A DNA stretch of 51,912 bases, taken from the IMG/VR virus record IMGVR_UViG_2718218100_000010; one strand, given 5' to 3'. Source of the DNA: a virus. Lineage: Duplodnaviria > Heunggongvirae > Uroviricota > Caudoviricetes. Of this stretch, positions 31,472 through 45,082 are shown piece after piece (position 1 is the stretch's first letter; the number at the start of each line of letters is the position of its first letter). Below the pieces are notes generated by a model, which worked only from the letters and a program-made list of their open reading frames with translations, searched no databases and was not told the origin of the DNA. The translations under genes and the position numbers were made by a program.

Positions 31472-31789
31472 AAGAAATGAAAAAAGGCCACGCAGTTGCG
31501 CAGCCTGATAAACCCTGGTTAAAATCCACACGATAACAACACAACAATATCAGTATCTCATGCTATTGCCCGAACCCATTCGGGCATTTTTTACCCATAA
31601 AAAAGCCCCTCCGGAGAGGGGCATGTTTGCATGCACATTCTTTTTCTTGCATGGTGCCGGGTGCCTCCCGGTGAATTCAGTATCAGCACCTGAATCCGCG
31701 ATTATCCCATATACCTGGTTGCTGATCGCCCCTCCGCACAGGGGGATTCACCATGCAGAAGTGTTTTTAATAAACAGCAAACAAAAAAA

Positions 31790-31957
31790 TCAAGCATTAT
31801 GCAGGCTGTTTCTTTTTATCACCGGCCACAGCAATACCACAATGCCGCAGACCAGCACCCCATCCGCCAGCACCGACATGATTCTGCTGGTGAAATCCAC
31901 CATCACCACCAGAAACAGCAGGAGTGCAGCCACAGCCAGGCGCAGTTTTACCGTCAC
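31790..31957 (-). CDS. Candidate 55-aa two-helix membrane protein, translationally coupled to the TerB-like gene
   Basis: GTG overlaps the TerB-like stop (GTGA) with GGAG upstream; hand translation VTVKLRLAVAALLLFLVVMVDFTSRIMSVLADGVLVCGIVVLLWPVIKRNSLHNA. Confidence 0.35.
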   Translation of the reverse strand: MTVKLRLAVAALLLFLVVMVDFTSRIMSVLADGVLVCGIVVLLWPVIKRNSLHNA

Positions 31958-32385
31958 AGGTGATTCTCCAGACGAAGACCCAGAACACCGGCAATCTCTT
32001 CCAGCACCTTGCGCTCTTCCGGCTCAATTTCGCCGTCTGCCTCCGCAATGGCCACCGCCACATCCAGCACATCTTCCGCTTCACGCGTATCGTGTTTCAC
32101 ATCCTCAATCTCGCGTAACGCGGCACGACGACCAATTTTAAAATTGGTATCCAGCTGACCGATAATAGTTGCGCTAATCGCATTAATTTCCGAGGTAAAC
32201 GCAGACAACGCAGGCTGATTACGTAAGACCTGTTCGATCTTCGCTTTCTCGGATGCCTCGCATTCACCATCTGCACAGGCCACCAGGTATGCAGCGTTAA
32301 TCACCGCCTGTGCCAGATCGCGTTTCTCAAACTTTTTAATTTCCGCTGCCGCTCTGCGGGTTTTCTTTTTGAAGATTCCAAACAT
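31954..32385 (-). CDS. TerB-like (tellurite-resistance TerB fold) protein, 143 aa
   Basis: Internal ATG of ORF 31954..32457 with AAGGAA RBS; acidic helical protein with ...AVINAAYLVACADGECEASEKAKIEQVL...AIAEADGEIEPEERKVLEEIAGVLGL pattern. Confidence 0.55.
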   Translation of the reverse strand: MFGIFKKKTRRAAAEIKKFEKRDLAQAVINAAYLVACADGECEASEKAKIEQVLRNQPALSAFTSEINAISATIIGQLDTNFKIGRRAALREIEDVKHDTREAEDVLDVAVAIAEADGEIEPEERKVLEEIAGVLGLRLENHL

Positions 32386-32512
32386 CGTGACGTTCCTTTG
32401 GGTGGGTGAGCCAACGCCCGGGAGCGATCTGCCCACAGAGAAAGTCACACTGACCACTCCGTAAGCTCACCCCCGAAAGGCTCTGTGGTTGATATGCGCC
32501 GGGCGTGGCGCG

Positions 32513-32540
32513 GATACAAAAAAGGCCGCCAATAGCGACC
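32513..32540 (-). terminator. Intrinsic terminator after the two-gene cassette
   Basis: Minus strand ggtcgc-tatt-ggcggcc (one G-U pair) followed by TTTTTTGTATC; homologous to 33110-33138. Confidence 0.5.
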
Positions 32541-32563
32541 TCAGTTACGGGATTATTCTGGGG

Positions 32564-32785
32564 TTAAACGACTGTTACTCCCCCCCAGACAAAATCATCA
32601 CTTCCTGTTCGATGCGAGCCATAGTGAACCTCGTACTTATCTCCCATCTTTCTTGCTTCCGTTTCTGCGTCTCCCTCTGTCGCAAAAACCCCAACAAGAT
32701 GCCAGGGCGAGCTTCTTACCACAGCCCAACCTTTAACCCATCCTTTGTTGTCCTTATCTTCCATTAACACTTCAGAAACAAACAT
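32564..32785 (-). CDS. Uncharacterised small protein, 73 aa (cassette gene 2)
   Basis: Strong RBS AAGGAGATAAAT-ATG; Trp-rich (GWVKGWAVV...PWHLVGVF...); no signal peptide. Confidence 0.5.
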   Translation of the reverse strand: MFVSEVLMEDKDNKGWVKGWAVVRSSPWHLVGVFATEGDAETEARKMGDKYEVHYGSHRTGSDDFVWGGVTVV

Positions 32786-32837: not shown

Positions 32838-33062
32838 TCAATAAAGTGGCTTCAATTTTGCCTTAATGATCAAATCAGGGTGATTGACGGAATCGTACAC
32901 CACCTCAATATTTTCATCCGTGGCGTCGATAAGATATTCTTTTACATAAGGACCTGTTGATTTTCCATGAAATACATCTTCAACAAGTACACTCTCCCCC
33001 TGAACAACACGAAAACTAACTTCTGTTTCGAACGGACCAATCGTCACCATCAGTTTTTTCAC
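32838..33062 (-). CDS. Uncharacterised small protein, 74 aa (cassette gene 1)
   Basis: GTG start preceded by AGGAGG; MKKLMVTIGPFETEVSFRVVQGESVLVEDVFHGKSTGPYVKEYLIDATDENIEVVYDSVNHPDLIIKAKLKPLY; no signal peptide. Confidence 0.5.
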   Translation of the reverse strand: MKKLMVTIGPFETEVSFRVVQGESVLVEDVFHGKSTGPYVKEYLIDATDENIEVVYDSVNHPDLIIKAKLKPLY

Positions 33063-33151: not shown

Positions 33152-33228
33152 TGGCGCGTTGTACTGGATTCGAACCAGTGACCGATTGCTTAGAAGGCAA
33201 TTGCTCTGTCCGGCTGAGCTAACAACGC
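33152..33228 (-). tRNA. tRNA-Arg (anticodon UCU), 77 nt
   Basis: Cloverleaf folded by hand: acceptor GCGTTGT/ACAACGC, D-arm GCTC..GAGC, anticodon stem ATTGC/GCAAT with loop CTTCTAA, T-loop TTCGAAT, 3' GCCA. Confidence 0.85.
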
Positions 33229-33241
33229 AGGGTACGGATAA

Positions 33242-33318
33242 TGGACCGCCATCGAGGACTCGAACCCCGCGCAACCAGCTTCGAAGGCTGGCGCTCTATC
33301 CCGATGAGCTAATGGCGG
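33242..33318 (-). tRNA. tRNA-Arg (anticodon UCG), 77 nt
   Basis: Cloverleaf folded by hand: acceptor CCGCCAT/ATGGCGG, anticodon stem CCAGC/GCTGG with loop CTTCGAA, T-loop TTCGAGT, 3' TCCA. Confidence 0.8.
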
Positions 33319-33325
33319 TATGTGA

Positions 33326-33401
33326 TGGTGGCCCTTGCTGGATTTGAACCAGCGACCTGGCGATTATGAGTCGCTCGCTCTCACCACTGAGCTAAAGGGC
33401 C
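33326..33401 (-). tRNA. tRNA with CAU anticodon (Met, or Ile2 if lysidine-modified), 76 nt
   Basis: Acceptor GGCCCTT/AAGGGCC, anticodon loop CTCATAA, T-loop TTCAAAT, 3' ACCA; first tRNA after Q as in many lambdoid prophages. Confidence 0.8.
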
Positions 33402-36303: not shown

Positions 36304-36459
36304 TTACTCCTCAGATTCGTAAGCTGTGAAGACAGCGACCTCCGTCTGGCCGGTTCGGATTCGTACCTCGCAGAGGTCTTTCCTCGTTACCAGTGCCGTC
36401 ACTATGACGGTTAAACAGATGACGATCAGGGCGATTAACATCGCCTTTTGCTGCTTCAT
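36304..36459 (-). CDS. hokD: Hok/Gef-family type I toxin, 51 aa (HokD/RelF-like)
   Basis: MKQQKAMLIALIVICLTVIVTALVTRKDLCEVRIRTGQTEVAVFTAYESEE; AAGGAG RBS; the track ORF 36304..36516 includes the upstream mok-like extension. Confidence 0.8.
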   Translation of the reverse strand: MKQQKAMLIALIVICLTVIVTALVTRKDLCEVRIRTGQTEVAVFTAYESEE

Positions 36460-36704
36460 AGCCTGCTTCTCCTTGCCTTTCGGCGCGTAAGAGGCTAACC
36501 TACATGTGCAAGTCATAGATATGGCCTCAGATTAATGTTAAGCGTCTTGCCGGACGCGTAATGTTAACTGGGGCTTTTCTCTATCTGCCGTTGGTGTTCA
36601 TGCCCGAGGCAGATAGCCTCAAGCACCCGCAGCAATTCTACTTAACTCTCGCTTTACCGCAAACCGTTTTTACCCGATATGGGAATTCCCATATCGTAAT
36701 GAAT

Positions 36705-44360: not shown

Positions 44361-45082
44361 ACCATTTATTGGATTAATTCAATATTCTTGCTGTAGGGGT
44401 ATAGCCGAGGCCACCAAAGCCCGGAGGTGGTGAAATAAAACCGGGCACAACACGAAGGCGCATTTCCGGTATCCATAAAGAGTCGGTCTTGTCTGTCAAA
44501 TTTAAATGGTGGGAGTGCGCCTCCGGTTGTGAATAACAACACTGCTGTGTGTAGTCTTGGCGGCATCAGTTTTTTCTTGAAGTTCGACTGATGTCCGCCC
44601 TTTTTAAAGTGAATTTTGTGATGCGGTGAATGCGGCTAAGCGCACGCGGAACAGTTAAAAAGCTATTGTCCTTCGTAGCAGAGTTATGGGTGAAATATCC
44701 GGCGTTAATTGTTAACTGGTTAACGTCACCTGGAGGCACCAGGCACCGCATCAACAAAGTTCACTTCAGTGATGAAAGGTGAGAGAAAATGTTGAATGTA
44801 GCTATTGAAAACCAGAACGGGTGGAATTATAGTGCACCTGCACCTCATAAAACGGGTGCCGGGATTTGCACCCCGATGATCACTAGAGCGCATAACCGCG
44901 CCAAAGCGGTTTTTTTATGCGTAAAGCGCAGCCACATTCAGATTATGGTGGGGCGTATGGGGCCGTTTTCGGGCGGGCCGGATTCTCTAGTGACCGGTAG
45001 TGCAAACCCTGTACGTCTCACCACCCATGAGATTTGCACCTCCGGTGGTGAGTTTACCAACTTATCACTAGAGGCTGCCATC
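44361..45082 (+). other. Structured non-coding leader upstream of the rha-like gene
   Basis: No convincing ORF; hairpin gcccgg..ccgggc at ~44419-44446; GTTAACTGGTTAAC at 44711-44724; intrinsic terminator aaccgc-gccaaa-gcggtt+T7 at ~44894-44918; direct repeats gatttgcacc...atcactagag. Confidence 0.4.

Follow-up and report, generated by a model that had tools for sequence, protein, structure and literature searches.

A prophage gene pair identified as the tciA-tciB cassette: a TerB-family gene overlapping a small membrane-protein gene

The gene pair at 31,790-32,385 of the window, the whole 51,912-nt stretch of prophage DNA analysed here, is almost certainly the tciA-tciB cassette that was first named in phage P1, as judged from sequence comparison. 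The pair has carried these names since P1 was annotated, so it is no new discovery; it is a genuine and widely distributed cassette with existing annotation, and thus already known. The gene names tciA and tciB are used in the annotated genomes of JLK-2012, PPyecE_EH1910, P1 and Pollock, and RefSeq labels the identical E. coli DNA as 'tellurite resistance TerB family protein' and 'DUF3927 family protein'. At least 80% of window 31700-32500 was found in 788 of 5426 complete E. coli genomes (~15%). Our literature search found no experimental work on tciAB function, and the pair is absent from the text of one paper on a phage accessory-gene screen. CRISPRi knock-down of tciA, tciB and tciC in P1 caused no plating defect, and the genes were scored as non-essential (PMC10695390); this result demonstrates dispensability in the laboratory and says nothing about function. 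New in the present analysis are the stop/start overlap and gene order across divergence, the spread over phage types, the lytic-growth placement where it is informative, purifying selection on both genes, the invariant residues of TciB, the position in the stx slot and the STnc100 small RNA directly after the pair.

Table 1 Features of the tciA-tciB region and other RNA matches in the window
Feature	Position	Strand	Description
tciA	ATG 32385 to TGA 31954	-	143 aa, MFGIFKKK...LRLENHL, single-domain TerB-family protein
tciB	GTG 31957 to TGA 31790	-	55 aa, DUF3927, predicted small inner-membrane protein, two hydrophobic segments
Coupling junction	31954..31973	-	GGAG, 8-nt spacer, GTG overlapping TGA; cTGGAGaatcaccTGTGAcg
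Leader upstream of tciA	32386..32560	-	conserved, ~170 nt
Terminator-like hairpin in tciA leader	32542..32522	-	from promoter/terminator scan
Two small ORFs upstream	32564-32785, 32838-33062	-	73 and 74 aa, no Pfam match
tRNA genes	33152-33401	-	adjoin tciAB
STnc100 sRNA	31593..31785	-	Rfam RF02076, full length, 145.8 bits (gathering score 47)
Intrinsic terminator of STnc100	31622..31605		
AgvB anti-GcvB sRNA	31531-31592	+	96.5 bits
Holin	29158..28883	-	own lysis gene of this prophage
sok antitoxin RNA (hok/sok)	36454-36628	-	Rfam match
C4 antisense RNA	44840-45028	+	Rfam match, beside isrK
RalA antitoxin RNA (ralR/ralA)	50178-50356	-	Rfam match

Proteins encoded by tciA and tciB

The first-pass annotation had called the product of the first gene TerB-like, and this assignment held in an HMM search, in which TciA matched Pfam TerB (PF05099) over residues 26-138 of 143 with 55.9 bits (cut-off 24.4; E=6.4e-15). 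TciA also matched PHROG 632 ('tellurite resistance') over its full length (E=2.9e-69). It has a TerB-like helical fold, and the closest structure is that of ter-operon TerB, 2JXU, to which the profile match again covers the full length (E=2.4e-17). The description of an acidic protein ending in LENHL was likewise correct, with an overall pI of 5.09; the two parts of the protein differ, a basic N-terminal tail (residues 1-22, pI 11.2) being joined to an acidic TerB core (pI 4.4). The amphipathicity of the N-terminus was not significant when compared with shuffled sequences (fraction 0.083). Within the core, two acidic ADGxxxxxE motifs (A-x-A-D-G...E), D39/E46 and D117/E124, align with the corresponding motifs of 2JXU. 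Among 27 aligned homologues, A36, E46, A114, D117 and E124 are invariant and D39 is kept in at least 90%. A longer tciA, the 167-aa ORF from GTG 32457, is not supported, because every one of the 27 homologues begins M-[FL]-G.

TciB matched Pfam DUF3927 (PF13064) over residues 3-51 with 62.3 bits (cut-off 25; E=4.3e-17) and PHROG 1470 ('TciB-like inhibition of cell division or resistance to colicin') over residues 1-54 (E=4e-30). The DUF3927/TciB family is small, comprising only 62 clusters (50% identity) in a set of 1.84 billion representative proteins. The two-helix membrane prediction made from the ORF was reproduced by the hydropathy profile, in which two hydrophobic peaks (stretches ~7-20 and 26/33-47) are flanked by K/R at both ends of the protein. 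Because of these terminal K/R residues, we infer that both ends of TciB are cytoplasmic. In 24 distinct sequences, D21, S28 and D32 are invariant and R6, F15, F22, T23, S24, W44 and P45 nearly so, and an AlphaFold2 model places a turn at A31-D32-G33 with low confidence. These features suggest that TciB is an N-in/C-in hairpin with a conserved polar face located either at the membrane or inside it. No similarity of TciB to TerC was detected in the Pfam search. Close relatives of TciB have the first ~36 residues in common and end in one of three C-terminal variants, ...VCGIVVLLWPVIKRNSLHNA, ...VVGIVVVLFPLVKKDMPGS and ...VAGVVVVAFPLLKKKASGD (window 31790-31850, minus strand), suggesting a recombination breakpoint inside tciB.

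The overlapping junction and co-inheritance of the two genes

At the junction, the reading of a TGA stop overlapping a GGAG-preceded GTG start was confirmed: the two genes have the 4 nt GTGA in common, and GGAG lies 8 nt upstream of the start codon. To place this junction among its relatives, two sets of loci were used. The scan of viral contigs yielded near-identical E. coli prophages and served to define the cassette boundaries, and the scan of genome contigs was the source of diversity; the resulting diverse set of 38 loci comprises 32 from species-representative bacterial genomes and 6 from phages, with TciA homologues down to ~28-35% identity. The small ORF, the conservation of which had been at issue since the first-pass annotation, proved to be conserved in both sets. 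A DUF3927 ORF was present in 78 of the 80 near-identical viral loci, the other two contigs ending ~170 nt past tciA, and an HMM-detectable DUF3927 ORF lay directly 3' of the tciA homologue in 26 of the 38 diverse loci. The gap between the genes was -1, -4 or 0 nt in 22 of these 26 (P1, Pollock and 20 species-representative genome loci); the other four were tabulated by a longest-ORF start further upstream, so that the true start is not fixed. All 24 tabulated diverse junctions overlap or abut, in the form CTGTGA, TAATG, TGATG or TAAATG, and the overlap of -1 or -4 nt is kept, together with the order of TerB gene and then small membrane-protein gene, down to ~30-40% TciA identity.

The partner itself varies at greater distance. 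Three more loci (an Erwinia jumbo phage, Pantoea and Rosenbergiella) have a divergent two-segment hydrophobic ORF of 49-59 aa at +3, -8 or -1 nt, and in Pseudomonas juntendi and Paracoccus the gene of an unrelated 67-68 aa protein with one transmembrane segment overlaps the TerB gene (gaps of -4 and -8 nt). Therefore, the constant feature is a small membrane-protein gene coupled to a TerB gene. The small proteins of Pseudomonas juntendi (L101 4441-4644) and Paracoccus (L112 4398-4604) are visibly alike, with an N-terminal transmembrane helix, a C..YGY...GC motif and no Pfam match, and look like an alternative membrane partner for phage-type TerB. No small membrane ORF followed tciA in Pseudomonas phage PMBT3, Vibrio phage K480 and two Marinomonas genomes, and phage 434 carries tciB without tciA. 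The partnership is therefore strong, not obligatory. In phage 434 (L124 1612-2844), tciB is flanked by the genes of two other membrane proteins, one polytopic (247 aa, no Pfam match) and one small, and it lies upstream of the esterase gene that is also present in the window.

The median pairwise dN/dS was ~0.27 for tciA and 0.28 for tciB, values that are rough because dS is near saturation; on these sequence comparisons, both genes are under purifying selection. Structure prediction for the pair, which had been proposed at the outset, was carried out through the natural frameshift fusion P0125 and succeeded in part: the TerB portion was modelled by AlphaFold2 with pLDDT ~75-89, and the TciB portion reached only ~50, so the model is uninformative on any TciA-TciB contact. 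The TerB+DUF3927 fusions P0125, P0186 and P0292 were also considered as Rosetta-stone evidence and were discarded, because their junctions read as frameshifted translation of the overlap region.

Genomic context in the prophage and in other phages

The gene order agrees with the original placement of the pair between small-protein ORFs and nanS-p in the late region. On the minus strand, the order begins with the DUF1367 and YbcO genes, the DUF1133/Q-like antiterminator, tRNA-Met, tRNA-Arg, tRNA-Arg and a terminator, and it continues with the two small ORFs, the terminator-like hairpin, tciA, tciB, STnc100, the nanS-p type SASA esterase, holin, lysozyme and Rz. No sigma-70-like promoter for tciA was found by the promoter scan on the minus strand of 32386-32560, and no riboswitch or other known RNA was detected in the 170-nt leader at E<=0.01. 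This leader occurs together with tciA and tciB in all 80 close viral loci, irrespective of the upstream DNA. The two small ORFs are present in only ~16 of 80 otherwise near-identical loci and therefore make up an optional insert of their own, placed between the tRNAs and the leader of tciA.

STnc100 begins 5 nt past the tciB stop codon, ends in an intrinsic terminator and follows tciB in most of the close viral loci. It is a neighbour of the pair and might be derived from the 3' UTR of the tciAB mRNA. The AgvB small RNA is convergent to STnc100, and a bidirectional terminator is common to both. The remaining Rfam matches lie elsewhere in the window (Table 1). In an Stx1 phage, stx1AB occupies the same position as tciAB, between Q and STnc100-like DNA with the esterase. 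The slots compared were window 31790-32560 and L126 (Shigella phage 75/02 Stx) 4001-5443, with Q or the tRNAs on one side and the nanS-p esterase on the other. The tRNA genes that adjoin tciAB in the window have counterparts flanking the pair in P1, JLK-2012 and an Erwinia jumbo phage (L002, L001 and L005). As a defining feature, tRNA linkage was rejected, because a tRNA gene lies within ~4 kb in only 9 of the 38 diverse loci.

The cassette was found in five unrelated phage types: lambdoid, P1/D6, P2/186-like, N4-like and jumbo. P1 carries it in the ban operon, downstream of Pban, a promoter under control of the C1 operator, and P2/186-like prophages carry it in the early lytic operon after cox, between the Phage_186_Fil gene and a Dam-type methylase gene (L122 7687-8611 and L123 2298-3222). 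The virulent N4-like phage Pollock has the pair, and in Erwinia jumbo phage genomes it is located at the left end. Where placement is informative, namely in the lambdoid, P1 and P2/186-like phages, it points to transcription during lytic growth, which argues against a purely lysogenic-conversion role.

Possible functions and comparison with known systems

We propose, with a probability of roughly 30%, that tciAB encodes a TerB complex that is tethered to the membrane and protects or conditions the infected cell's inner membrane. The membrane-stress or exclusion module put forward in the first-pass annotation is supported in part. In the proposed scheme, TciA, a cytoplasmic protein, and TciB would be made from one mRNA through coupling at the stop/start overlap, and TciB would insert as a hairpin with both ends in the cytoplasm and with a polar face (D21, T23, S24, K/R25, S28 and D32) at or in the membrane. 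TciB and the basic N-terminal tail of TciA would together keep TciA on the cytoplasmic side of the membrane, and its two ADGxxxxxE motifs may bind a divalent cation, as was reportedly proposed for TerB by Anantharaman and co-workers in 2012. The complex would then condition or guard the membrane, its target being phage DNA entering the cell, pore-forming colicins or host defences that depolarise membranes, so that its role would belong with the phage inhibition and colicin resistance of the Ter phenotype and not with tellurite resistance. Tethering by TciB is suggested by the literature: TerB has been described as an amphitropic peripheral membrane protein, TerB proteins of the Dionysus defence system act with membrane partners (10.1101/2025.09.30.679545), DjlA has a TerB-like domain beside its membrane helix (PMC11709261), and the phenotypes of the ter operon include inhibition of phages, resistance to colicins and resistance to tellurite. 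The co-inheritance of the two genes, the purifying selection and the lytic-growth placement also count in favour of this proposal; the P1 CRISPRi result, the low-confidence TciB model, the lack of a PADLOC match, the non-significant amphipathicity of the TciA N-terminus and the loci that have one gene alone count against it. A bolder version, which we regard as a long shot, takes the pair as a minimal phage unit of TerB and membrane partner in which D21 and D32 of TciB and the acidic dyads of TciA would form a cation-responsive inner-membrane switch, used in lytic growth by many lineages against membrane-acting immunity, including the phage inhibition of ter islands, or against competitors. 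If true, this switch would be a counter-defence or exclusion device of a new class, acting at the level of the membrane, and a first handle on what TerB domains do.

Several other functions were weighed against a protective membrane complex. Small phage membrane proteins often inhibit division, and TciA and TciB might serve host take-over by acting on the division machinery or the envelope so that the infected cell filaments, as the 'inhibition of cell division' in the tci name implies. The pair directly follows the Phage_186_Fil gene in P2/186-like prophages and lies downstream of a dicF-like region in the P1 ban operon, and in both Y. pestis and E. coli filamentation results from terZAB, of which terB is a part, terCDE being responsible for tellurite resistance (PMC4633105). 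This effect of terZAB keeps division inhibition alive as a rival, but filamentation was mapped to terZAB as a block and not to terB alone, and lethality to terZA (PMC4633105); moreover, we found no division-protein-like motif in TciA or TciB, and the P1 CRISPRi screen gave no phenotype (PMC10695390). We consider a division block possible but rather improbable. Tellurite resistance by lysogenic conversion, the function implied by the database name, is argued for only by the family name and automatic annotation. It is very unlikely here, because resistance is carried by terCDE and is left intact by deletion of terZAB in Y. pestis (PMC4633105). No other ter genes lie beside tciAB, terminators precede the pair, whose leader showed no promoter in the scan, and virulent phages carry it as well. 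The authors of the phage papers themselves call such predicted resistances doubtful or still to be tested (PMC6799933; PMC8421299). A role in the timing of lysis, with TciB as a holin- or antiholin-like protein and TciA as its cytoplasmic regulator, would fit the lambdoid position between Q and the holin-endolysin-Rz cassette as well as the size and two-segment layout of TciB, which resemble those of a class II holin. However, the pair is away from the lysis genes in P1, P2/186-like, N4-like and jumbo phages, TciB matches no holin family in Pfam at E<=1, and this prophage has a holin of its own, all of which makes the lysis role decidedly improbable.

The two remaining alternatives involve conflict with the host or with other phages. 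Phage TerB might act as a mimic that disturbs host TerB functions, such as those of ter-operon phage inhibition or of Shango, Bunzi and Dionysus, or might neutralise membrane-depolarising abortive-infection effectors. The full-length similarity of TciA to ter-operon TerB, the presence of tciAB in both virulent and temperate phages of Enterobacterales, the implication of ter operons in phage inhibition and the recurrence of TerB proteins as components of defence systems are consistent with mimicry as purely contextual evidence, but no anti-defence family match was obtained, and simple mimicry leaves the small membrane partner unexplained; we regard this counter-defence role as unlikely. The gene order, with a soluble protein first, a small hydrophobic protein second and a 4-nt overlap, is like that of toxin-antitoxin operons, and ghoST and rexAB are analogous to tciA-tciB in this respect. 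Dionysus, too, joins a TerB protein with a pore-forming membrane protein. TciB might thus damage the membrane while being checked or triggered by TciA, in a sensor-effector exclusion or toxin-antidote pair comparable to lambda RexA/RexB, GhoS/GhoT or DinB/DinC of Dionysus. The carriage of tciAB by strictly virulent phages argues against abortive infection, and phage 434 has tciB alone, without an evident antidote, which leaves a toxin-antidote pair similarly doubtful.

Whichever function applies, stress operons often contain TerB domains, as do DjlA and several anti-phage systems described recently, and tciAB is the simplest natural setting for such a domain, with one TerB domain and one 55-aa membrane partner. 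The simplicity of the cassette, its presence in ~15% of complete E. coli genomes and its position in the stx slot in this prophage recommend it as a model in which TerB function can conveniently be studied and as a reasonable target for experiments on TerB domains. It is also a model for the cargo-slot content of lambdoid prophages in pathogenic E. coli.

Among known systems, the closest is tciA-tciB(-tciC) of P1 (NC_005856 70233-70929), around the proteins of which PHROG 632 and 1470 were built. It shares both families and their order with the present pair, and it has overlapping stop and start codons and tRNA genes nearby; TciA is 41% identical over its full length, and P1 TciB matches the DUF3927 profile. 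The P1 pair belongs to the C1-controlled ban operon, whereas the present pair lies in a presumably Q-dependent late region and is followed by STnc100, and a tblastn search of the window with P1 TciC returned nothing better than E=1.3. The TerB of the ter operon (2JXU) is of the same size and single-domain architecture as TciA and has the same two acidic motifs. In contrast to terZABCDE, tciAB is a stand-alone cassette without TerZ, TerA, TerC, TerD or TerE neighbours, and its membrane partner is the 55-aa DUF3927 hairpin instead of the polytopic TerC. DjlA, a membrane-anchored DnaK co-chaperone, also has a TerB-like domain, which a transmembrane element keeps at the cytoplasmic side of the inner membrane. 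The match of TciA to the DjlA model NF006948 of NCBIfam (28.2 bits, cut-off 162) is restricted to the TerB-like stretch, no DnaJ/J domain was found in TciA with Pfam, and the anchor that is part of the same chain in DjlA would here be a separate polypeptide. PADLOC-DB v2, a library that predates Dionysus, contained no defence model for the pair; the best match of TciA was PDC-S48 (E=0.0022 over 35 residues), and TciB had none. Dionysus DinA/B/C, Shango and Bunzi resemble tciAB in that a TerB-type protein occurs with membrane proteins in a phage-related context. These systems have extra parts, namely a pore-forming toxin, a helicase or an ATPase, and are encoded by the host, whereas tciAB is encoded by phages, virulent ones included.
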